This document shows, in pieces, positions 1,722 to 28,863 of a stretch of DNA of 64,000 nucleotides. Position 1 is the stretch's first letter, and the number at the start of each line of letters is the position of its first letter. Under the pieces are notes generated by a model. It ran no database searches. It was not told the origin of the DNA and saw only the letters and a list, made by a program, of their open reading frames with translations. Source of the stretch: Picochlorum sp. SENEW3 (taxonomy: Eukaryota). The stretch is taken from the NCBI GenBank assembly GCA_034226945.1, contig CP120456.1, positions 930,001 through 994,000 of the forward strand, written 5' to 3'. The translations under genes and the position numbers were made by a program.

Positions 1722-4538
1722 ATGAGTGATTATTCTCCCTCTGCGGATGAGGACGAGGAATTTGAATACCTTGACGGTGTTTCTGAAGAAGAGGACATGG
1801 AAGTCGCTGGAGGCGAGGAAGGAGAAGAAGGAGAAGATGAGGATGAGGATGGATTTGATATACTGAATTTTCTAGATGACCAGGATGATATTCCTACGGC
1901 TATTGCTGCGTTGGGTGGAATGGCCAACGACAGTGTACTGGAGAATATGAGACGACGTGGATTGCAACACAATACCCGGGAGCAGGATGGTCCCAGGACA
2001 AGGAGAACGTCTCGTTCGGTTCGGTTTGCAGATGAGGATCTGTCTGCTGAGGAGGAGCCTGAGGACCTGGAAGAAGAGCCCCATGCATACAAGGTGGATA
2101 AATGGAGTGATGAGCAGGCTGAGCAATTGGGTTTTGCTCCTCCGACGAGCACAAAAGCTCAGAAGAGAAGGGAGCAAGCAAGGGTTCGAAAGATGGCGGA
2201 GGGTAGGGTGGTGAGAGATCGCTCAGGCATGCCAGAAGTGGCAAAGGATCTGTTGGGCAAGGGCAACACATGTTTCTTCCGGGCAGAGTATGATGAGGCT
2301 GAGAAGATATTCATGAATTGTATACGTATAGCTCCAGAATTTCCGGATGCGTATTCGTCGCTGAGTAGTTTGTTTGCAGAGAAGGGGGATCATACAAGAG
2401 CAATGAATTTTCTCATGGTGGCTGCGCATCTCACAAAGAAGGAGTCTCAGATCTGGAAGGATGCTGCTGTGATGTCAAGGAGTCAGGGAGCTCTTCGACA
2501 GGCAGTGTATTGCTTGAACCAAGTGATTCGGAGGGAGAAGAATGATTTGGAATGGAGGTATGAACGTGGGTTGATTCTGAAGGATTTGAATATGGAGAGA
2601 AAGGCATTGGAAGATTTGATGTACTATCATGATAGATGTCCTGACGATCCAGAGAATATAAAGACAATTACGAGGCTCTTGTATTCGATGGATAGATTGG
2701 ATGACGCAAGGAATGCTATTCAATCGTACATTGAAACATATCCTGAGACGACAGATTTGACTCATATCAATCTTCTCTCTGAGCTTTATATGCATCCTGA
2801 TATACGCGATTGGAATGCGTTATTGGGATTGATGGAAGAGACGCGGGAGGCTGGGTGGGCAGATCCTCAGGATCTGCCCACAGAATTAGAGAGCAAAGAA
2901 GCCATTGCATACGCACATCTAGGTGATGTTGAAAAAGCTTCAGCAATCTGTCAAAAATTACTCGAAAAACCTGTGGATATATTTCCAGATGTATTCATCT
3001 ATGTAGCTACTGAGTTTGAGGCGTTACAGATGTATGATTATGCTGTACCATTTCTTGAAAGACTTGCATGTGAGGCGCATGGGTCATCCATGGATGTGTG
3101 GAGGAGATATGCAAATGCGTGTCAGCAAGCAGAGGGAGGTATACAAGGAGCCATAGAAGCGTGTACGAAAGTCGTGCAACGGGTTTCGAGGGACAACCCA
3201 GACTTTATTGATGCTGTCATTAGACTTGCTGACTTGCTCTTGGAGAATGGTCAAATAGAAGAAGCAAAATCTTCTCTTGCTGAGCTGGAGTCAGTTGATC
3301 CATATCCTGGCGGGGTTTTAACAATCCCAGAACATGTATATACTACTAGATCGCGCGTGCTGAAGGCATGCGAGTGCGATGACTTGTACAGCATGCTGTT
3401 TTATGAGCCAGTTTTGAAGAGCTTGAAACTGATTTTCCACTCGCCTGATAACGTGGAGAGAAAGGGTCGGAAAAAATCAGGTGATGGAGGCGATAAAGTT
3501 GGAAATGATTTATTTGTGTGGGAGAGTTCTCAAGAGAAGCGCAGGAAAAAAGCAAAGCAGCAGGATGGGGGAGTTGAAGAACCCAGCATGTTTGGTGCTG
3601 ATATGGAAGAGTCAGATGTGAATATTCCAGTGCTCAGCAATCCATTAAAAGATAATCAATGCTTTGACGTGGTTGTGCACTTGATAAAAGTGTTACTAAA
3701 GCAAGGTGAAATCGAAAAGGCTCACGATATTTGCGATCTTGCCGTGACTGTCCTGTCAAAGAAGCACCCAAACAAGGATAGAAGGGATACAGTCAAAATG
3801 TATCTGGCAGATTGTCAGTGTCGCATGGGCGACCTCTCTAGCGCTTTGAAGCATATCAAGGCCCCTGCAGATCATTGGCCCGACTCTGCAGAGGTGTGGA
3901 ATATATTTACCAAAATTACCCTCGGGGTTGGAGGTGTGAGGCAGACTTCAAAGTATATTAGCAACATGAGGCGGAGGCATCCACACTCTTTGGCACTTGC
4001 TCTTTTGAATGGCCACGTATTTCTCCAAAGTCATCAATACGCTGCTGCCCTTGGTGAATATTTTGATGCTTATAGGATGGGTCCCTGGGAGCCTGTTGTC
4101 AAGATGTGCATAGCAAATCTCTTTGTCAATTACGCATGTGTGACAAAGAAGGATAGGGATATGGCACTGATGCATGCATTTGCCTGGATGCAAGAATATG
4201 CCAAACTGCGTAAGAATAATGTAGAATTTGCATACAATGCTGGGAGGATAGCACATCAGTTTTCCCTTTTACATTTGGCGGTGCCACTGTATAAGGAAGC
4301 CCTGATGCACCACGATCATGCCAACCTTCCGTTCGACATGGAACAACTCGAGATAGAGAGGAACGCTTTCAACAATGGACATGTATCCAGGATCTCTCAC
4401 TATATTTCTAAGGGTAGTTTAAATCCAAAGAAGTCGGACCTTTCCCGGGAATCTGCTTTTAATTTGGCATTGCTTCTGCGGGAGTCTGGTGCACATGAAC
4501 TTGCAAAGAAATGCATGAAAAAATATCTTGTATTCTAA
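1722..4538 (+). CDS. GTF3C3: Transcription factor IIIC TPR subunit (Tfc4/TFIIIC102-like)
   Basis: 938 aa; acidic N-terminus, TPR array (AMNFLMVAAHL, QAVYCLNQVIR), C-terminal YNAGRIAHQFSLLHLAVPLY and DLSRESAFNLALL typical of Tfc4. Confidence 0.88.
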   Translation: MSDYSPSADEDEEFEYLDGVSEEEDMEVAGGEEGEEGEDEDEDGFDILNFLDDQDDIPTAIAALGGMANDSVLENMRRRGLQHNTREQDGPRTRRTSRSVRFADEDLSAEEEPEDLEEEPHAYKVDKWSDEQAEQLGFAPPTSTKAQKRREQARVRKMAEGRVVRDRSGMPEVAKDLLGKGNTCFFRAEYDEAEKIFMNCIRIAPEFPDAYSSLSSLFAEKGDHTRAMNFLMVAAHLTKKESQIWKDAAVMSRSQGALRQAVYCLNQVIRREKNDLEWRYERGLILKDLNMERKALEDLMYYHDRCPDDPENIKTITRLLYSMDRLDDARNAIQSYIETYPETTDLTHINLLSELYMHPDIRDWNALLGLMEETREAGWADPQDLPTELESKEAIAYAHLGDVEKASAICQKLLEKPVDIFPDVFIYVATEFEALQMYDYAVPFLERLACEAHGSSMDVWRRYANACQQAEGGIQGAIEACTKVVQRVSRDNPDFIDAVIRLADLLLENGQIEEAKSSLAELESVDPYPGGVLTIPEHVYTTRSRVLKACECDDLYSMLFYEPVLKSLKLIFHSPDNVERKGRKKSGDGGDKVGNDLFVWESSQEKRRKKAKQQDGGVEEPSMFGADMEESDVNIPVLSNPLKDNQCFDVVVHLIKVLLKQGEIEKAHDICDLAVTVLSKKHPNKDRRDTVKMYLADCQCRMGDLSSALKHIKAPADHWPDSAEVWNIFTKITLGVGGVRQTSKYISNMRRRHPHSLALALLNGHVFLQSHQYAAALGEYFDAYRMGPWEPVVKMCIANLFVNYACVTKKDRDMALMHAFAWMQEYAKLRKNNVEFAYNAGRIAHQFSLLHLAVPLYKEALMHHDHANLPFDMEQLEIERNAFNNGHVSRISHYISKGSLNPKKSDLSRESAFNLALLLRESGAHELAKKCMKKYLVF

Positions 4539-4594
4539 TGTACAGAGTCGATAATAATAATACATATACAAGGATATCAAATTTTTTGTATCAT

Positions 4595-7572: not shown

Positions 7573-7777
7573 TAAAGTAACTAATTCTGGACTTCCCATT
7601 TACGGAGATAAGGGATGTTCCGCAACAGGCTTGGTCTCTCCCTGCGCCTGACAGTGTCGTGGCAATGAGTGCCACGTCAGCAGAGAGTTCCATGGCATTA
7701 TGAGATGCATTGTAGCGCTCGCATACTCATATGATGAATCAAATAAACGTGTAACTTACAAATAAATAATACGAAAC

Positions 7778-9196
7778 ATGATAGTAAGAGATATACTCAC
7801 AGTACAAAGGCATCGGTGTGTGCCAAATTCGGCATCATCTCACAAGCCTTATGCACCTATGCGCCCTCGTGTAGCACAATGTGGTATTATAAGGCATCCA
7901 ATATGCCATAAAAATAGCAAATTACTAGCAAAAGGGGTGAAGCATGAGGCTGCACCTGTAGCAACAGAAGAAGACCACGTCAGACAAATCCTTGCTGACG
8001 TTGGAGGCAAGCAAAAGGTTATGATTGCCCAGGTTGCCCCGGCGGTACGCGTGAGCCTGGGTGAAGAATTCAATGTAGATCCTCCGGTGACGGGGAAGAT
8101 TGTGACGGCTCTGAAATTGCTGGGATTTGATTATGTCTTTGATGTTATTGCTGGTGCTGATCTCACAATCCTAGAAGAAGGCTCGGAGCTGATACAAAGA
8201 CTTGCTGATAATCTGCAAGGGAAGGAAGACGCAGCACCTCTTCCAATGTTCTCCAGCTGCTGTCCGGGTTGGATTGAATTTGTGGAGAAATGCTCTCCAG
8301 AGGTTATACCATATGTGTCTACAGCAAAGAGTCCTCACATGATGCAGGGCGCCATTATCAAGACATTCTTTTCTGATATTATTAAACGATCGGAGGAGGA
8401 TATTAGCGTGACATCGGTGATGCCTTGCGTGCGGAAACAAGGTGAAGCTGATAGAGAACCAAATCAAACACCTGCTGGTCATAGACATGTGGATCATGTC
8501 GTCACCACAAAGGGACTCGCACAAATGATCAAGGATGCAGGTATCGATTTTGCAAATCTTCCTGATACTCATTTTGATGCCTTCATGGGGCTTGGATCGG
8601 GAGGCGCAGTACTGTTTGGAACCACTGGTGGTGTTATGGAAGCAGCCCTCAGAACTGTGTATGATATTGCATCGCAAGGATCAGGGGCTGGGCCCTTGGA
8701 TCATCTTGAATTTGAAGACGTCCGCGGGATGGATGGTATCAAGGAAACTTTTCTGCGTATTCCTTCAAACCTAGAGGGTCCTCTACACAACTCAGAGGAG
8801 TTGGAGTTGCATGTGTGCGTATGCAATGGCTTAGGTAATGCGAAAAAGCTACTCAAAGAAACGATCGAAGGAAAAAGTAAATACCACTTTGTCGAGGTGA
8901 TGGCATGCCCAGGAGGGTGCATAGGTGGAGGTGGACAACCAAGATCCAAGGGAAAGGAAGCCTTGATGGCCCGCCAGAAAGCATTGTACAATTTGGACAG
9001 TTCCAGTGAGATTCGCCAGTCCCACCAGAACCCAGTCATCAAAGATCTATATACCAAGTACCTCGTGACACCTGGAAGTGAGGTCGCTGAGACATTGCTT
9101 CACACTGGTTATGTTGAGGGTGGACCAGCAAAATACAAGGGACAAGGTGTTTCTGAAACATCCGATGAAGACATCTGCGACGCTGATGATATCTAA
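7778..9196 (+). CDS. HYDA: [FeFe]-hydrogenase, H-cluster-only (M1) type with transit peptide
   Basis: VAPAVR, L1 FSSCCPGW, L2 MPCVRKQGE, L3 EVMACPGGCIGGGGQP, FGTTGGVMEAALR, LLHT; basic N-terminal presequence; no ferredoxin-like F-domain. Confidence 0.95.
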   Translation: MIVRDILTVQRHRCVPNSASSHKPYAPMRPRVAQCGIIRHPICHKNSKLLAKGVKHEAAPVATEEDHVRQILADVGGKQKVMIAQVAPAVRVSLGEEFNVDPPVTGKIVTALKLLGFDYVFDVIAGADLTILEEGSELIQRLADNLQGKEDAAPLPMFSSCCPGWIEFVEKCSPEVIPYVSTAKSPHMMQGAIIKTFFSDIIKRSEEDISVTSVMPCVRKQGEADREPNQTPAGHRHVDHVVTTKGLAQMIKDAGIDFANLPDTHFDAFMGLGSGGAVLFGTTGGVMEAALRTVYDIASQGSGAGPLDHLEFEDVRGMDGIKETFLRIPSNLEGPLHNSEELELHVCVCNGLGNAKKLLKETIEGKSKYHFVEVMACPGGCIGGGGQPRSKGKEALMARQKALYNLDSSSEIRQSHQNPVIKDLYTKYLVTPGSEVAETLLHTGYVEGGPAKYKGQGVSETSDEDICDADDI

Positions 9197-17907: not shown

Positions 17908-18336
17908 TATTAAAAAACAAGCTATATTTCAGCTGATATGAGTCCGTTATTGCTGTCCAATCCGAGAAAATGCGTGGATCAACATTTTTTCGAACGAGTC
18001 CTCAGCATCTGACGACCATTCTAGAGCATCCAACCAAGGATTCAAATCAAAGACGTATAAATCTTTAGTTCAATTTATCAATTCCCCTGAATTTGAGACT
18101 TTTGGCTCGAGTTGCATTTCTTTCGAGAAAGCATTTGCTGAAACCATGCGATTGATGCGACATGAGACACCTGGCAAACAGTCAAACACTCTTGGGCAAA
18201 CAAACGCTTGACAATCGTCCAGATAGTTGCGACACCGTTGATCAGATGATTTAGTAGAACCATGACACGATATTTCAGTAGAAAAAACAGCATATGCGTT
18301 TTTTTTTTCCTACCTGTGTCGTATACGTGCAGCAGT

Positions 18337-18900
18337 ATGTGGACATTGTCGGTCATACTCCTCATCTTTTTGCCAGCTCTTTGCCAGGGACATGGGTTCC
18401 TGAAACACCCACCCAGTAGAAACTTTCTAGCTTCCAGCTACTACTGCCCACAATGTTTAAACGCTGCTCCAACAAATCCGAATGGGGAGTCGTTCCCTGA
18501 TGGAAAACATGGTATCTGCGGAGATCCGTATTTCTCCCCAACGCCTCGTGATCATGAAGCGATGGGCAAGTTTTGGACAGGCGAGTCGCAAGCGACCTAT
18601 AAAGAAGGCCAAGTTATTGAGCTCAATGTGTTTGTCACAGCATATCACAAAGGAAATTTTGAGTTCAGTATTTGCAAAATTGACGGAACGAGGGCAGAGG
18701 ATGAAGCAAGCCAGTTTACACAGGGATGTCTTGATGAGCACAAGCTTGTTCAAGCAAATGTTCCACAAGCACAGGTGCCAGGAGACACCTATTATTATAT
18801 CGGACCAAGTTCAGATGGGTTGGTGACGGGAAACAACTGGGAACAAACAATGTACTATAATGTAATAATAGTATTTATATTATACATCATATGCATATAG
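18337..18900 (+). pseudogene. C-terminally truncated lytic polysaccharide monooxygenase (AA15/AA10-like, chitin-binding type 4)
   Basis: Signal peptide then His1 (QG|HGFLKHPPSRN), GICGDP, VTAYHKGNFEFSIC; frame drifts into AT-rich DNA after about 18861 without the usual LQW...CADI half. Confidence 0.7.
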
Positions 18901-19059
18901 CTATGTGACTGTAGTGTTTTCCGTTGTATCACACGTCGGGGATGTCCTCCTCTGCTCGTGTCCGAGGCCTCTGGAAGACATTTTTCCCCACATTCCAACA
19001 GATTTTGAAAGTATGCCCACATGATGTAAGAAAGTCTAACAAGGTATAAAAATCAATAT

Positions 19060-19826
19060 CTAATTACCGACAGCAGCATTCATAGCAGAATACACCTCCA
19101 CCCCTACTTGGGCTGCGGCAATCTCGTAATCATCTCCCTTTGCCTGTACTGATGCCAGCTTTGCTGTGTACTCCTGCAGCCCCGCCTTGACGGCCTCTGG
19201 GTCCAAATCACTCACTGGGACAGCCTCAACAGCACACACATCAGCAGTAGAATCTTCATGTACAAATGCAAAGCCACCACTGACAAAATACTTCTCTACA
19301 TCCTTGTCCAATTCCTTGTGAACTGTTACCAGCCCAGGACGGAGTTCTGCAACAGTTGGAACATGCCCAGGCATCACTCCAAAATCACCAGTCACGGCTG
19401 GCATCAACACCAGATCCACATTTTCCCCTTTAAATACGGTGCTGTGGGGCATGAAGAAGTTGAACTTCAATTTATCCGGGGTGACACCGGCTTTCTCCTC
19501 TTCACCTGCAGCCTCCTTGGGAACGAAGTTGCTAGGGAACTCGGGTGGGGCAAGGGTTCCCCCGATAGGCTCGAATTTTTTCAAAAATTCCTGTATATAG
19601 TAATAATATGGCTCATATCCTGACGATTCATCGCAAAAGAAGAAAGAATTGTGCCGATTTCATGAGATTCGCAACACGAGCAAAAGTGACCAATCTGGCG
19701 TACCTGTTTGCTATTTGCACTGGCATCTTCCTCTTCGAATTTTATCAGTGAACTGGAAACCCCGCGCTGGCTCATAATACGCTGTTGCGCAAGGGCAACA
19801 ACTCTGGAACTCGCGCGTCTCAACAT
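19060..19826 (-). CDS. ATP16: Mitochondrial ATP synthase delta subunit, 2 exons
   Basis: Exons 19826-19704 and 19590-19060; presequence MLRRASSR; KLKFNFFMPH, GDFGVMPGHVPTVAELRPG, YFVSGGFAFVH, VCAVEA. Confidence 0.95.
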
Positions 19827-20333
19827 GGCGTATCAGTGTCCTCTGCCACCTGTTGGCTTTCCAATGACACGATTTTTTTATTTTTTTCAGTTTATTGGCT
19901 ATTTGGAGATGTTGGCATGGATGACTGTATTCTTCCCATGCGATCGCTCTAAGAGGATTCATCCATCAAGCTTCTAGCTTGATCATAAGGCTGTTTTTTG
20001 TTTGATGTTTGGTCAGAGTGACTGTTACATGAATGTATGCAGAAGGAAATCACCTGATGACGATGAAAGAAGAAAGAAAGAAAGAGGGTACGTATCATTC
20101 AGAGAATCAAATCGACAGGTAATGCATTAGTAAGACATGGTCAAAAAAAAAAAAACTCTTGTAGAGAGATCTTTCTCTCCCTAATTGCATTCGACATTAG
20201 AAGCCCAGTCGCAGAAGGACACAGCGAATAATTGAGAGATTGAGGAAGAGATAATTGTACAAGTATGTCACGGATGCTCCAATTCCTTTCGAAGTTCTTG
20301 AACGAGGGAGGTGGGAGGCCCCCTCTGCTATAG

Positions 20334-20940
20334 AAACGGCATAGCGGCATGATATGCCGTTTTCAACATATTTATCTGTCAAAGGACCCCTTTGATAGGC
20401 AAATTTGTTATGAAATCGATATGCTGGAGTATATTTGCAGCATATTTGCCTTGATTCTGCCACAGAGGGCCTTCATTTGTTTTAAAAACGTATTCTAGAT
20501 GCAATTAGTAATCATATATATACAAAGATCCAGACACAATTCCCGCAAGAAAAGTGTTTCTGACGACCAACCAAAGGTGGATGGCTGTAGGCATAACTAG
20601 TTATGCCAAGCTGATCAATAAAATTCTTCACCTTCGACTGTCCTGGTGCATGCTGCTAGATTCAATCAAGATCGTTGCAATGTCACGCTTTCACACAGCG
20701 AATTAGATGATTCGATGAAGTGCAGTTCAAATTCTGTTGGGCAGCATAGGGATGGCCTTCTTTCACCCTCCTACTAAGCCCATCTTTCGACCGGAGGATC
20801 TTCTGAGATAGCATGTCGGGCCCAAAGAAAAACGGCATAGCATAGCATAGACTATGGCATAGCGAGCCGCTATGCCGGTGACCCAAGCGTAGTGATGACA
20901 TCCGGCCCGTGCCATGAGGCCTCATGGCGGTGCATGGAGT
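20334..20940. repeat. Cluster of GGCATA-based palindromes and repeats (probable transposon subterminal region)
   Basis: AAACGGCATA-N9-TATGCCGTTT (about 20334-20362), perfect GGCATAACTAGTTATGCC (about 20590-20607), tandem GCATA repeats and GGCATAGCG-N-CGCTATGCC (20835-20877), GCCATGAGGCCTCATGGC (about 20911-20928). Confidence 0.55.
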
Positions 20941-21510
20941 TGATATGCTGTGACGATTCCTGTCAGACCCATATTTTTTTTGTGAGAATTATCTCGTCCC
21001 AAACTGACGTTTGTCAACGGCATCTCGCGAAGAAACATAGCTTCGCTGTGGTAGGCTACTACAGTAACGATAGTATAGACTCGGACGACGACTGGCGTAG
21101 TCGTGCGTTTCCGACCCTTGGTCTCGTCGTCTCGTATTATCAAAGTAGTAGTAATTCTTTAGTAGAGTTTATATACGAATTATAATTCCATAAAAAGGAC
21201 CGCCGGTGCTGCTGCTGCTGCTGGGCGTGCGGTTGGTTGTTGAGTGGAAACACCAGTTGTTGTTGTTAGTTTTTTTGCACGAGCGTTGACCCAGCAGCTG
21301 CGATCAACGCCCGTGGAGGCCGTGCACTGATCAGCCGAGCCTGTTCGGACGGATACAGAGACAACTATTACACACACAAGGTACGAATCCCATACAGACA
21401 TGAAGGACCACGTTTCATAACAGGGGAGTTACGATCAGTTTCCTTGTGTAGGTGACAAAGGAACCGTGGCGCGTGTGTGAGGAGGAAGAGATAAAGATAC
21501 GGTAGTGCCA

Positions 21511-22770
21511 ATGGAAAAAGGGTTCGTTAATCAAGGTCCTACCGTCGCAACATCGACGCCTGGAGGGGAGGCTCCCCACATGGAGTGTGATGACCCAACA
21601 GGGTCCAGACCTACAGGAGACCACAGGAAAGAGGCAAAATTCAGGACTGAAAAGTTAGGTCTGTATAGAAAAACACGGGGAAAACAGAGTAAATACGCGC
21701 AAGAAGTGAGGAAGGTGATAAAACCTGGATCTCTGGGCGGGTATCAAGACCACAACCGAAAGAACAAGGGACAGTGGAGGGGTATTGCTCGCATATCCAG
21801 AATCAAAGAGCTTCTGTATGACACGGCCACGATGGTGGGCCACATATCCGTCGAAGCCACCCAAGCTGCTCACTACCACGTGTACCGATGCCTCGAGGAA
21901 GGTATTGATCTGGGGAAGATGGATTACAACAATTTTTGGAGCTACATCTTTGATGCCATCAAAGACCTCAGGTATGGGGACGGCCTCAAACAGGACATCA
22001 GGACACCCCTGTACGACTCGCTCCGACAGTATGCAGAAGAGGCTCCACTACCTCAGGCAGGCGAGTCTCTGAGATGGGACGTTGACGGTCACACGGCCTG
22101 GCGTCGGCATTGCCTCAAAGCTGCGGCGGATGCAAAGGCTCAGAATTTGCACATTATTCTGCACCACAATGCGTATCACAACCTTTGCAAGATTGTCAAG
22201 GTTCGGCTTGCACGCACCTTTGGGGCACGGTATGCGGATGACTTTCGTTCTTTGGTGTCTGCCGTTGCCGCCGCTGTGTGGGAGGACGTGGATTTCCGTG
22301 ATGTGAAGGAAGGGTATGACAGATTGAAGAATCTAACCGAGGAAGAGGTCCGAGACATCCAGGAGGCGATCGTCAACCCTATTCGAGAGAAATTTCCGGA
22401 TCAGGAAGGCCGAAAGGAAAACGCCAAGATGATAGAATTCGTGCACTTCGTTGCGGGCGAGGTGATGGAATACAACCGCCATCGTTCTGAGCAGTCCGGC
22501 CCCGGGAGCCCACCGCAGGCCATCGAGTTAGTGAATGTGTGTGTGGGAGAAAAACTGGCGGTGGCCATCGAGCGAGATTTGAGGAAAGGGTCGCTCACCA
22601 AGAAGGCGTTTGTCCACCACGTGAAGCATGCGCTTGACATATTCCGACAGTGTTCTGGTCCAGACGTGTTCACCACCCGTACAGACCAGGGACTCCGGGA
22701 TGGGGACAACGGACAACGTTTCGTGGACCGAAACGACAGGTATCGGGGGCAAAGGATGTGGGGTATTATT
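21511..22770 (+). pseudogene. Fanzor1-like RNA-guided nuclease, N-terminal (WED/REC) half only, truncated before RuvC
   Basis: RIKELLYDTATMVGHISVEATQAAHYHVYRCLEEGIDLGKMDYNNFWSYIFDAI and HCLKAAADAKAQNLHIILHHNAYHNLCKIVKVRL follow the Fanzor1 REC pattern; similarity ends at RMWGII (about 22770), after which the ORF is antisense of another gene; no RuvC motifs. Confidence 0.65.
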
Positions 22771-23785
22771 TCAATCTGTGCCCAGGCTTCAGCTTTCCTT
22801 CTTTCAAAATGTCTTTGTCGCATGATATCCCGAATTCTCGGTGGAGATCTCCCGTCTCTGCGTCGATATGTTCCCGTTCTTGTAGAATCATACCCCAAAC
22901 ACCATCTTTCCTCCTAATGACACTTTGCCCACATTCATACGAAGGACGACCCTCACGCGTAGGTCTTCTCTGCCAGGGATACTCACTCAAATTTTGAGGA
23001 TTTAAATATTCTTTTTCAATACTGCATCGATCCCTCGGAATCGTATGCTGCATATAATGGTCTGAAAGAACTTAGATGCCAGTGTGAGTCAAAACCTGCT
23101 CTTCTTCTTTGCTCAAAGAAACAAGGAAGAACTCGCAGACAGGTACGCCTCGATCAAGTGTATTCATGTCAGGGTCTTTGAGGACGAAAATACACATCCC
23201 AACAAGGTCTGCAACGTCATCGTCAAACAACAAGATCGGCATATCTTGCTTCATCACTAACAGGTGGAATTGCATCAAGTCCTTGGCATACTTGGGCACT
23301 GACTTCGGCATGGTTGCGGGCTCATCAACCTCATATATATTCAATATACAAGGAAACGAAATCACACTGGAAGGCAGCGATAAAGCAGATGGGCACGCGA
23401 CAATATATGGCCTGGTACGCAGCGGCCAGAACCCGTTATTGAAGACCAGATATTTGCGCAGGTCTTCGTCGCGCGGTATGTCTTCGCCGCCAAACGCATA
23501 GCATATTCTTTTCAAGTAGATGATATTGGCATCGTCAAACGTCTGAATTGGAAGACGCAGTCGTCCCTGTCTCCTCAAGGACGTGTAATATCGCTCCCCA
23601 GATATCTCATACAGCTTCCCTGCCTCAACCCGTGCTCCGAGAGCCTGGTCGAAGGCATCAGTCCCGCGGCGCAGGTCCCAAAAGTCCTTTTCACATTTCT
23701 GTGGATCAAAGGGTATGATATCTAGACCTTGAAGCACTCTGCCCTGCTCCTGAGTCCACAGTGGTGGAGAGTCCTGGTCGCCCAT
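22766..23785 (-). CDS. Unknown transposon-associated protein, probably 2 exons, likely 3'-truncated
   Basis: ORFs 23785-23072 and 23053-22766 with a TTTCAG acceptor at 23062; TATA-like element near 23835; lies about 310 bp inside a CACTT-type end. Confidence 0.5.
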
Positions 23786-23929
23786 GAGTCCCGTGAAGCG
23801 TTGCCACCAGTGCGACTCTGGCGATTGATTGCCTTTATATAGCCCTTACAATTAAACAATATCTATTGCTTACTATCCATCATATGAATTTGAAAGCATA
23901 AACTCTCCGACGCTCACCCAAAATTCAAA

Positions 23930-24096
23930 TTAGTCTAAGCGGGAATGCCGCCATATTTTCAGAATGGGGTTTGGAAACACGGCGGTGATCCGGCTTATAA
24001 GCGGGAACGCCGCCGAGTTTTGGGGTTTTGGCCATTGGGCGCCACCCTCAAATACGGCGGTGATCCCGCTTATAAGCGGGAATGCCGCAGCAAGTG
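23930..24096 (-). mobile_element. Orphan CACTA-like terminus (CACTTGCTGCGG) with palindromic subterminal repeats
   Basis: Ends ...CAGCAAGTG at 24096; three AAGCGGGAA(T/C)GCCGC units, two of them within CGGCGGTGATCC(G/C)GCTTATAAGCGGGA palindromes; no partner end found. Confidence 0.5.
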
Positions 24097-24133
24097 GTAC
24101 TTTGGTAAATTTCGTGTCTGAACGATTTCTATA

Positions 24134-24660
24134 CTGGAAAAATTTTAAATTTCGTTAGGTAAATCGCATTAAAACGAATTTAGATTAAAATGAGCACATA
24201 TTCTGGGGAGTAGCCAACGAAAATTGAATAAAAGTTCCAATTTTTTTGGCAATTCCCCTGCTTGACAGTCTTTGCCTATCCAGCAACCCTTTTGACCGAT
24301 GATATTGATCGACTCATTGATCTTCTTCTTTTCCCATCAAATGTCCCTCTTGACAGGCAAATCGACTGCGACTTGCGAGTCATAAACTGCTGACTGGGGT
24401 TGCCCCTGAGCATGCTACACATCCATACCCTGCCACTCAATGATCCAGAGGATTCACAGAGCTCAAATCTCTTAGATCCTGTATGAAATGCCCTTGTTAG
24501 GTCAACCAGAACAGAGGCTGACGAAAATTGAATAAAAGAAACAAGGCATTTGAAGCTGACCAACGAAATTTGATTAATATGAAGGGGCAAAATTTCCTCG
24601 CGCTTCGCACGACGAAATTCAATATTTTAATCAATAAAACGAAATTAAAAAATTTTCCTG
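24134..24660. mobile_element. Tc1/mariner-type MITE (527 bp) with TA target duplication
   Basis: TA|CTGGAAAAATTTTAAATTTCGTT ... AACGAAATTAAAAAATTTTCCTG|TA imperfect TIR; internal ACGAAA(A)TT repeats; one end recurs at 31295-31353 and 61771-62453. Confidence 0.7.
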
Positions 24661-24675
24661 TAGTTTTCAAGGACC

Positions 24676-25701: not shown

Positions 25702-25933
25702 ATTTGAGAGTTTTAAGTCAGTGCAAAGCTTCAGGTCAAGAGGATTTTTTTTTCCATTTAATGGCCGCCCTTAATTGATTCCAGGGTTGCAGATCGTGTC
25801 ATATTTTTGGTACGGTCAAAGGGTATCATCTCAGATCCAAGTGTCTCTCAATCCTAGATGGGCGTGATTCTCGTGGGAAGTCATCCAACCCACTGGTGAG
25901 GGTTTTTGAATTCAATTCTTTATTAGTTGAGGC

Positions 25934-28863
25934 CAGGGTTGCAGATAGTGTGATATTTTGATTTTTTATGACATTTCCCGAAATTGGTGTCATATTTCCT
26001 GGCGGAAATATGACACCAAAATATGACAAAATCTGTAAAAAGATGACACCAAAGTGGCTCAGGAATGGGATCTTCAGGGGACGACGAGGCGGGACATTCC
26101 TCTCCCCTAGAGAATAGTGAAAGTGATTTCTGCGAGATCTTGAGTGAAAAAGAAATAAAACAAAGACAGGGTAAAATAATAGAGTCCAAGGGCATCAACG
26201 ATGATACCAGGAGGGCAATTCGAGCTAACCTTGAGAGTTGGGAGGAAGCAAAGTCAAAAATGTCTTCCCAGCAGACTGAGGCCTCGAAGCGGAAGTTCAG
26301 TGGTGATCCAGACACAAGTGCAGGTTCTAGTAGAGCGGTGAAGAGTAGGAAGATTAATGTTCATTGGATGGCCGAGTTTCCTTGGCTGCGTGTGGCAGGC
26401 CAAGAACAATACTGTGAATGGTGCTCATTAGGCACAGGCAAGATGGTGATAGTCAATGCTGCAAAGAAGAAGACATTGCTAGCACAGCATCAAAAATCAT
26501 CAAAACATAACCACTTCATGATCTTTTCGAAATCAGAAAAGACATTTAAGGTCAAAAACGACACCCAGACAAAAGTCAAACAAAGCTTGCAGAATCCCAC
26601 TTCAAAGATCAAGCGTCAGAAATGTTTTCAGCTTACAAGCATCTTGTCGCATATTACCCAGTATGGTTCAGTTCATGGATTTGAGAACAATGTTGGTCGA
26701 TTAATGGCGTGGTTACCAGAGAGTGACCATGGACTGCTGAGTAAAGAGCACTCTTCAAGGCATTCTATTTGGGAGATGGTTGATGCTCTGGATAAGGTTT
26801 TGAAAGAAAAAATCCGGGAATTGATCTCTCAATCCTCTTTTATTGCACTGACAATTGATGCCAGCACAGATAATTCCACTATAGATCAAATGGACGTGGA
26901 AATGCAGGTCTGGAGAGGAGGAAGAGTCTTACATCTCTTCTTGTTCATGGCGCCAATGAAGGAAAGAACAAAGGCACATGATCAAGCAGAGCTTGTTTTC
27001 GAAGGGCTCAAGGAATTCACAGGCCTGTCTCGTGAGGATCTTGCACGAAAAGTGGTATCTATTGCCGCGGATGGATGCAGTACGATGCAAGGCAGAAAAA
27101 ATGGAGTTCTAGCTAAAATGATGAAGAGTCTGCCATTTCTGTTGCCAATGTCCTGTGCTGCACACAGAGCCAATCTTGCGTGCGAAGTTATCAGCAAGAA
27201 CAAGTCATTTGCAGAAATTTGTCAACTAGTCCAAGATGTCCGGGAATTTCGTATACGATTCACCATTGAGAATGAGGAACCTGGATGTTTCTTTTGAAGA
27301 AGTTGGACTCAAGCCAAAGAAGATAGAGCGAATAATTGATGTACGATGGATGCCTGTAGATTCATCTTTTAGATCCTTCTGTTATGGTTTGCCGGCAACC
27401 TTACGTTGTTCCAGGAAAGAATCTGCTGTGAATGTGAAAGCAGGTGAATTATTCCGAAGACTGTCTGATTTCACAACTCTCTGGGAAATATTTCTGCATC
27501 TCCCTTTGCTGCAAACACTTGGTAGGATGATGAAAAAATTCCAACAAAAGGACATTTTCTTTCAGGATATGCAGACCATTCTTGAAGATGCTTCAAGAAA
27601 CATCAAAGAGAACTATCTGGAGGAGAAATCTGCATTCAAGACCTTTGACTTTGAAATGTTATTTAGAGAGGAAGACCTCAGCAGAAGTTATATGAATGGT
27701 AACCCCTTTACAGTTGGGAAAAAATGATATGGGGGAATGGTATTGCTACTTCCATACAATGGAAGACAAGTATGTACTGAACTTTGATCGATATGACCGC
27801 GAAGTATCTCAGATTCTGGCAAATGAAAGGAGCAAGGGGCAAGTGAGAGCCGCTAGTATGTTGGATTTGTTAAACGAGGATATGGATGTTGATCTAGAAC
27901 TCGCTAAATTGCCTCCCAAAGATTGGGAGTTTCCAAACAAAGCAAATGAGAAGTTCATGAAGGTCCTGACAAGGGCTGTGGATCTGACGGAGAAGACTGC
28001 ACGGGACTTCTTGTCAGCATTGGAAGCAAGATTCCCATCTGATAAAATTCTTGACGCATGCAAAATACTCTCACCAGCGTCGTATGTTGAGGAACAACCA
28101 TCAGCTGAGAGGACAGACAGCCTGAAAGATGTCAAAAGGAAGGAATATTTGCATCGAATAGATGTGTTGCTGGAACTGTTTGGAAAGGCCAAAGACAATA
28201 TTGAACCTCCAATTGACCGACATCAGGTGAATTTTGAGATGAGAGACTTTCTGGAGATTGTTAAAGTAAGAAGTGAAGCATTCATAAATTCCTGCTGTGG
28301 GGAGAAGTCAGGCCCAATCAAATTTCTCAATTATCTGTTACAGAATGGCCTTCTTGAGAGCAAGTGTCCTGAGCTTGTAAAGCTATGTCAGTTGATTCTC
28401 ACGATACCATTCACCACAGTGGAAAATGAGCGCCGGTTTGCTCACATGAACCTCACTAAGACAAAGACAAGAACCAGGCTTGACTCCAAGCATTTGAATT
28501 CATGCCTTCGACTGAAATATATCCCTTGTGAGTTGTGGGAGGACAGCAAGATCTATAATGAAGTAATTTTACCAGCTTTTGAGGCCTGGAATTCCATGTT
28601 AAGGCGGTGTGCAGTTGAATGAACATTTTAGAATGAGTGATTTCTGTAACCTTTGGATGGATAACGTGCCGTCCGATCAAGTCGCCCTAATGAAGGGATA
28701 TTTGGATCGATCAACCCCCTGTGTAGAACTTGCCCATCAAACGTCCCCTTTGACCGTACCCAAAAATATGACAAAAACATGACGAAATATGACATTTTCG
28801 GTCAAAATCGGGCTTTAGTGGGACACCAAATATGACAAAAATATGACACTATCTGCAACCCTG
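25934..28863 (+). mobile_element. hAT DNA transposon (about 2.9 kb) with an extra TIR copy at 25782
   Basis: TIR CAGGGTTGCAGATAGTGT ... ACACTATCTGCAACCCTG; subterminal AAATATGACA repeats; no matching 8-bp TSD. Confidence 0.88.
26065..28622 (+). pseudogene. hAT transposase split over three frames
   Basis: TTF-type finger (W..EFPWL..YC..C..H....H), LTIDASTD, AADGCSTMQG, CAAH, VRW, C-terminal dimerisation motif IPFTTVENERRFAHMNLTKT; frame changes near 27270 and 27720. Confidence 0.88.

Follow-up and report, generated by a model that had tools for sequence, protein, structure and literature searches.

Intact sisters of an oversized Fanzor1 gene in Picochlorum and a copy very probably split by a recent rearrangement

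Fanzor1 proteins comprise families 1-4 of the Fanzors (preprint 10.1101/2023.06.13.544871); their reRNAs adopt three-stem folds that include the TSD (PMC10711439), and the RNA of GtFz1 overlaps 17 codons (PMC10432273). In the latter paper, Saito et al. also observe that tests of the native role of Fanzors need the removal of many copies. The element described here, from Picochlorum sp. SENEW3, encodes a protein of a known kind, and its sequence is already catalogued: Data S1 of Jiang et al. 2023 (PMC10530073) contains Fanzor50_0237 and Fanzor50_0798, assigned to ‘family4’, whose first 400 residues are near-identical, as judged by eye, to the proteins encoded by our window and its sister copies on contigs C3 and C10 and to that of C7, respectively, and which, at 1034 and 1021 residues, are as long as the stop-to-stop frames of C3/C10 and C7. 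Since the N-terminal motif of the family is matched in Data S1, absence of the family from the catalogues is ruled out; the same motif gave 0 matches in the available portions of the Saito and Yoon supplements, and the four Picochlorum Fanzors in Yoon Table S2 belong, by eye, to the other families of this genome. In the accessible text of PMC10530073 both proteins appear as table rows only, and not among the tested proteins. PMC8557442 does not mention Fanzor, and a search of the literature on Fanzor and Picochlorum, as far as the texts were accessible, found no paper on this element. A preliminary description of the locus had supposed a probably uncharacterised family, which is right with regard to experiments but not with regard to the catalogues.

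The window, by which we mean the whole 64,000-nucleotide stretch of DNA that was analysed (positions 930001-994000 of contig C4 in genome G000, which has 13.85 Mb in 14 contigs), contains host genes in its first 20 kb and mainly transposon-like ORFs in the remainder; the ORF at 7766-9196 is one that, by its motifs, we take to be [FeFe]-hydrogenase-like. A stop-free frame runs from the ATG at 21511 to a stop at 22915-22917, and thus includes the roughly 420 open codons that had been read up to 22770. Sequence comparison places the end of the Fanzor sequence close by, at 22753, after 414 codons and one nucleotide, and the terminal 54 codons of the frame are antisense MuDR-like DNA. The 5′ piece (Table 1) encodes a disordered N-terminus, the first WED strand and a REC lobe with a clade-specific insertion, and lacks RuvC, as had been noted, the catalytic residues D763, E942 and D986 of the full-length protein all lying beyond residue 414. 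When a model of the fragment was compared with known structures by VIA-align, the top seven rows were all Fanzor1 chains at Z 8.8-10.0 (for helical bundles, values below about 13 may not be specific) and the next, unrelated chain scored 5.9, in line with the earlier reading of the central region as REC-like; SpuFz1 was matched at Z 10.0 (224 aligned, rmsd 5.4), and the enlarged REC1 is found in the fragment itself. In Foldseek, the fragment alone had no match at E<=0.001 (SpuFz E ~1, prob 0.66-0.69). A Pfam search of the window ORF returned no relevant family.

Table 1. Features of the split Fanzor1 element and its immediate surroundings (positions in the window)
Feature	Position	Strand	Basis
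LPMO (AA10-like) host gene, 5′ part, interrupted by the Fanzor right end	18292..18855	+	Pfam LPMO_10 E 6e-9
Candidate guide segment in the right flank, antisense to the LPMO-like gene	18836..18855	-	position only, by analogy
Fanzor 3′ piece: last 16 codons, stop (18929-18931) and 73-nt tail, forming the right end	18856..18979	-	97.6% to C10 element nt 3627-3750
Main exon of an ATP synthase delta/epsilon host gene, lying between both Fanzor pieces	19060..19659	-	Pfam ATP-synt_DE_N E 5e-17
hAT-type MITE without its left 28 bp; right terminus abuts the Fanzor left end	20334..20891	+	92-93% to complete C1, C6 copies
Predicted TAM/target CGTA	20888..20891	+	analogy to SpuFz1 CATA (PMC10432273)
Left end and 5′ leader, starting GTGATGAC; no TIR	20892..21510	+	same start in C3, C10, C12 and window copies
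Fanzor1 coding 5′ piece, residues 1-414 of the 1,024-aa protein	21511..22753	+	95-96% aa identity to intact C3/C10; model matches Fanzor1 chains, Z 8.8-10.0
Terminal part (1.35 kb) of a 4.8-kb MuDR-like TIR element; blunt join to the Fanzor 5′ piece	22754..24105	+	97-99% to 4 other copies; long TIRs

A search of the genome with the window piece returned six matches, namely its own copy, copies on C3, C10, C12 and C7, and a second piece on C12. The C3 and C10 copies have 1034-aa stop-to-stop frames and the C7 copy, 63% identical to the window piece, one of 1021 aa; counted from the ATG, the three proteins have 1,024, 1,024 and 991 aa (C3, C10 and C7). The C12 copy is broken by five small deletions of 1-2 nt each, and those homologues of the divergent C7 copy that carry a name are from Picochlorum. 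Intact copies had been suspected in this genome and do exist, the C3 and C10 frames being stop-free with D763-E942-D986, so that full-length homologues keep RuvC. The predicted structure of the C10 protein (mean pLDDT 81.6) placed seven Fanzor1 chains first in Foldseek (E 7.5e-13 to 3e-10; next 5.6e-4), and in VIA-align it matched PpFz1 at Z 21.2 (522 aligned, rmsd 4.1), SpuFz1 at 18.9 and GtFz1 at 16.9, the seven Fanzor1 entries spanning 16.9-21.2 and the others beginning at 11.7, with TnpB at 10.2 and Fanzor2 at 9.3. A Fanzor2/IS607 affiliation was rejected, since the compact TnpB-like fold is not matched, no serine-recombinase partner is present and one ORF lies between the element ends. 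The RuvC D-E-D, with its rearranged glutamate beside a C4 zinc finger, is present in the intact copies and in a piece on C6 described below; D763, E942, D986 and the finger cysteines C949/952/973/978 are invariant in 11 of 11 aligned proteins, as are the D and G of the TDG motif in WED (T676-D677-G678). Because the A2 profile (SpuFz1 6.6e-62) is inflated by 60 generic Fanzor1 rows, a profile of the eight clade members defined below plus P0010-P0012 is the stricter test, and it gave PpFz1 at 3e-8 and SpuFz1 at 6e-8. With the full protein, Pfam returned only Cas12f1-like_TNB, below cut-off, and phmmer of the single sequence against the PDB gave two chance matches only. Nei-Gojobori comparison of C10 with C3, in which counts are small, gave dN/dS of 0.45 overall, 1.0 in residues 541-640 and 0.09 in residues 761-1024, the last from 6 synonymous and 2 nonsynonymous changes. 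The fold of the intact sisters, their catalytic residues and the profile matches agree on the Fanzor1 identity originally proposed for the window ORF.

Among 621 proteins found at E<=0.001 in 1.84 billion representatives, only P0002 and P0004-P0006 score above 330 bits (948-1,003 aa, 33-35% identical). In a FastTree phylogeny of 63 sequences of at least 600 aa, which left out eight shorter A2 rows, P0002-P0006 and the three own copies form a clade of eight with support 1.0, and 52 other Fanzor1-like proteins measure 607-868 aa. Clade-specific blocks lie at residues ~301-360, 385-480 and 541-640, all predicted to be mostly helical; across the first two, occupancy per 20-residue block is 0.81-1.0 in seven clade members against 0-0.37 in the 52 others, which bears out the lineage-specific insertion that had been placed after the EYNRH motif. 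A second insertion had been placed after FRTEKLGL: an extra loop does exist (residues ~75-95, after the first predicted strand at 65-74), but that position was only rough and P0010-P0012 have the loop as well. A profile search of a 5.8-billion set recovered P0001 only, 0 of 606 pattern matches in viral contigs were confirmed, and from the ESM Atlas came no more than leads to the clusters PF07282/PF26935, with no clear result on the insertion. In JGI metagenomes 81 of 217 pattern matches were confirmed, none sufficiently similar to serve for RNA covariation (right-end matches reached E 0.006 at best).

Other Fanzor sequences also occur in this genome. A second Fanzor1 family is represented by two 2.57-kb elements, 99% identical, at C7:399434-402003 and C7:1084354-1086923 (L057, L058), with 25-bp TIRs, TA flanks and a ~770-aa ORF; near-identical proteins stand in the available portion of Table S2 of Yoon et al. 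At window 24132-24662 lies a MITE with TIRs nearly those of this second family, a candidate ‘ghost’ element or shared-transposase relative. A third, divergent RuvC-containing Fanzor1 frame of 366 aa occupies C4:53205-54305 (L059:4206-5306, minus strand), weaker matches to Fanzor C-termini occur on C8, C5 and C6, and a decayed Fanzor 3′ fragment is contained in a 6.5-kb subtelomeric duplication (C4:1186739-1193228 and C7:2500-9000; L074, L075; 99.5%), to which blocks on C11, C10 and C1 are related.

The carrier of the gene is a non-autonomous single-gene Fanzor1 element of 3.75 kb, with a single ORF, no TIRs and no transposase inside. Its copies on C3, C10 and C12 and the split copy are 95-99% alike by region and have common ends but different right flanks. 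The bases before the left end are CCTA in C3, C10 and C12, CGTA in the window and AATA in a diverged C12 relic, and all four copies have TTATA at the close of the right end, with four different flanks. An 18-bp palindrome at 20911-20928 was found at seven places with at most 2 mismatches, a control pattern at none. The left and right ends are not complementary, and self-comparison of L027 and L028 gave no inverted match; since the Fanzor gene is not enclosed by terminal inverted repeats, a TIR DNA transposon (Mariner, hAT, MuDR) as carrier was rejected. Each of the three independent left flanks is similar to terminal or subterminal motifs of hAT type; the MITE that flanks the element in the window is called ‘hAT-type’ from its ends, its complete copies on C1 and C6 show 8-bp duplications, and a search for its missing left end found only these two. 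The left flanks derive from different hAT-like contexts, yet each has a TA directly before the common left end, which fits targeted insertion and argues against a spread that is one-ended, starting from the right end with a variable upstream flank, instead of by unit insertion at (C)NTA sites. To such one-ended spread we give appreciable but lesser weight: the copies on C10 and C12 have a common left flank of 3.3 kb and differ immediately beyond the right end, 3′ fragments predominate among the partial copies (nine loci against one or two 5′, several sharing one larger repeat), the element has no TIR, and movement of this kind is reported for the CRe-1/2/3 Helitron2 elements (PMC3627910). However, BLASTN found no similarity between either element end and stretches, which may miss the Helitron ends, around six of ten Helitron-like matches, and no TSD was found around the seven truncated copies examined.

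With the C10 element as query, three pieces cover it exactly, without gap or overlap: query 101-1956, 1957-3737 and 3738-3861 correspond to window 20881-22753 (+), C6:802809-804589 (+) and window 18856-18979 (-). The terminal 124 nt are therefore inverted, 1.9 kb upstream of the 5′ piece, and the middle piece on C6 is stop-free over 593 codons and holds D-E-D. The RuvC half and the 3′ end with its candidate RNA locus, which the preliminary description considered lost, are thus respectively stop-free on C6 and inside the window. An intact copy of the MuDR-like element (L032:3173-7953; its Pfam match to ZSWIM1-3 RNaseH-like, E 1e-4, is below cut-off) is continuous over 4539/4540, and its position 4539 follows the Fanzor 5′ half in the window while 4540 precedes the middle piece on C6, where the other MuDR-like part abuts the Fanzor sequence. 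These junctions are reciprocal and lost no Fanzor or MuDR base, and so point to a recent exchange between C4 and C6. A recent truncation had been proposed from the clean frame; the break is indeed recent, but the element did not decay and was split in three. That the MuDR-like element simply inserted into the Fanzor ORF and truncated it has next to no chance of being correct: its DNA does start exactly where Fanzor homology ends, but the junction lies 1.35 kb inside the MuDR element and not at a TIR, and the reciprocal product on C6 contradicts a simple insertion, as does the inverted Fanzor 3′ end upstream.

Under the exchange between C4 and C6, the whole 3.75-kb element would once have sat in the LPMO-like gene, and a recent multi-break event would have cut it twice and the MuDR-like element once. 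Two ends are left over, the 3′ end of an AGPase gene on C6 and that of the ATP-synthase-delta gene in the window, and a fourth break probably fell between these genes; if they were once neighbours, we infer that four breaks account for all eight ends. The ends appear to have been rejoined bluntly, presumably by end-joining. Contigs from four of 24 runs bear on this history, with the provisos that X1 may be the source sample and that loose ends could come from other copies. X1 contigs bridge 18855/18856 and 18979/18980, the latter with 39 nt on the short side, without substitutions; no bridge over 22753/22754 was among the matches listed. X9, which stems from a different study, connects 18854 with 20222 in opposite strand orientation, the two being separated by 1,025 other bases; its locus is Fanzor-empty, and its contig continues the LPMO gene in the orientation that the model predicts. 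The TA of the predicted target is a putative duplication; the X9 match ends at 18854. A 109-bp stretch at window 20220-20328, 96% identical to C12:15950-16057, starts where X9 leaves the window, which indicates replacement or relocation of roughly 1 kb of sequence at this place, among it the 3′ part of the LPMO gene. X4 and X9 continue from 18982 into sequence unlike the window. In X11, the right end lies in the LPMO gene and the 5′ half runs on into a variant otherwise seen solely in the C6 piece, an arrangement that would be expected of the unbroken ancestor.

An assembly error between repeats is highly improbable as the origin of the split: the region is TE-dense, and that no bridge over 22753/22754 was among the matches listed would suit it, but the junctions join unrelated sequences without shared homology, one of them is crossed by the X1 contig over 18979/18980, and each Fanzor piece has its own variants, 2-5% from every intact copy. 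It is hardly credible that Fanzor itself cut the breakpoints, even though two breaks lie inside a nuclease gene of which the genome has intact copies; comparison of eight candidate guides with three break regions gave 9/12 nt at best, and SpuFz1 cuts are staggered (PMC10432273) whereas these joints lose no base. We therefore consider it very probable that the window ORF is a real Fanzor1 and that this copy is a dead fragment of a recent reciprocal rearrangement; the series of breaks, in which nothing was lost, is the trace of a very recent and apparently strain-specific exchange between two chromosomes.

TE-dense tracts extend over window 20000-64000, C4 ~950-1105 kb and C6 ~597-803 kb, with MuDR-like, hAT, LINE-like and other DNA-transposon-like ORFs and Helitron-like matches. 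The rearrangement joins the C4 and C6 tracts, which may once have been one cluster, possibly centromeric. The window part includes a hAT transposase in three frames at 26047-28622, with a Dimer_Tnp_hAT match, and subterminal inverted repeats beside it near 25787-26052. Nested inverted duplications, 90-99.7% alike (31400-34871/58189-61655, 35553-37482/55584-57511, 29758-31265/62496-64000 and 41699-43009/46108-47420), suggest further rearrangements within the tract.

The preliminary description found no omega-RNA locus, a reading that is not borne out, since the inverted piece at 18856-18979 (-), the last 124 nt of the element, holds a candidate omega-RNA. Three hairpins are predicted for this piece (z -2.95, matched by 1 of 200 shuffles), and of 31 windows along the C10 element the corresponding one folds with the lowest z (-2.77; next -2.2); the predicted RNA overlaps the coding end by 16 codons. 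Shorter 3′ pieces from four of five other copies folded no better than shuffles (z -0.3 to -0.8). Covariation over 10 copies is weak, with 2 of 23 pairs changing on both sides, a value that 139 of 500 shuffles reach, and a control slid by -3 scored 0.100 against 0.078 for the candidate. By the proposed mechanism, the omega-RNA would span the last codons and the right end with ~15-20 nt of flank as guide, which would direct RuvC (D763, E942, D986) to DNA next to 5′-(C)NTA, and cleavage would favour re-copying of the element into empty alleles; candidate guides had no 12-nt match elsewhere in the loci scanned.

Fold, catalytic residues and selection are established for the intact sisters, and by analogy with SpuFz1 and GtFz1 the sisters on C3 and C10 and the divergent one on C7 are probably RNA-guided nucleases, with RNA, TAM and cleavage as predicted. 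It is less probable, though a sizeable chance, that the intact proteins keep D-E-D but are no longer RNA-guided nucleases, having no working omega-RNA or being silenced, and that selection reflects past mobility. The weak covariation would fit such a loss, as would the lack of an Rfam match to the candidate RNA, the absence of a transposase from the element and the divergent C7 tail, which has no terminal hairpin; but the tail forms three hairpins with the last stem pairing the terminal TA, as in Fanzor1 reRNAs (PMC10711439), the stem of hairpin 2 is kept despite loops of 9-26 nt, dN/dS in RuvC is low, and a transcriptome source yielded P0155, a C7-type member that has RuvC. Only tentatively do we propose that an oversized Fanzor1 clade (948-1,024 aa), with REC and helical WED insertions of its own, is still active in the alga and that its TIR-less element either homes on terminal motifs of hAT type or, anchored at a fixed right end, carries upstream DNA with it. 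If this were true, three intact copies in a 14-Mb genome and the empty X9 allele would make a native Fanzor role testable by knock-out and crosses.

The genome has three intact copies of this family and two of the second Fanzor1 family, and to the catalogued sequences we add the element ends, a predicted TAM, a candidate omega-RNA, the catalytic residues and the insertions, a sufficient basis for a TAM screen. SpuFz1, from the Spizellomyces punctatus element Spu-1 (PDB 8GKH, 9CEZ), resembles the algal protein in fold (Z 18.9, 530 aligned, rmsd 4.1) and in its TDG, DPG, E-x-R-S-S plus C4 finger and RDxN motifs, and Spu-1 is likewise a single-ORF element with TA at both ends and a short 3′ tail. 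The algal protein, however, has 1,024 aa against 633 aa, is 15% identical and carries insertions of ~180 aa in REC and ~100 aa in a helical part of WED, and its element is without TIRs whereas Spu-1 has TIRs of 30-33 bp (PMC10432273). PpFz1 (9CF0) is the best structural match (Z 21.2), and GtFz1 (9CER; Z 16.9) likewise lacks inverted repeats and has an RNA that overlaps the last codons (17, against 16 predicted here; PMC10432273); compared with both, the algal protein is larger and 15-17% identical, and its TAM is a predicted one. The Fanzor1-Helitron2 elements CRe-1/2/3 of Chlamydomonas are also green-algal, TIR-less Fanzor1 carriers with an excess of 3′ fragments (PMC3627910), but the algal element described here differs from them in being intronless and in that neither Helitron ends nor variable TSDs were found in the stretches and truncated copies examined.
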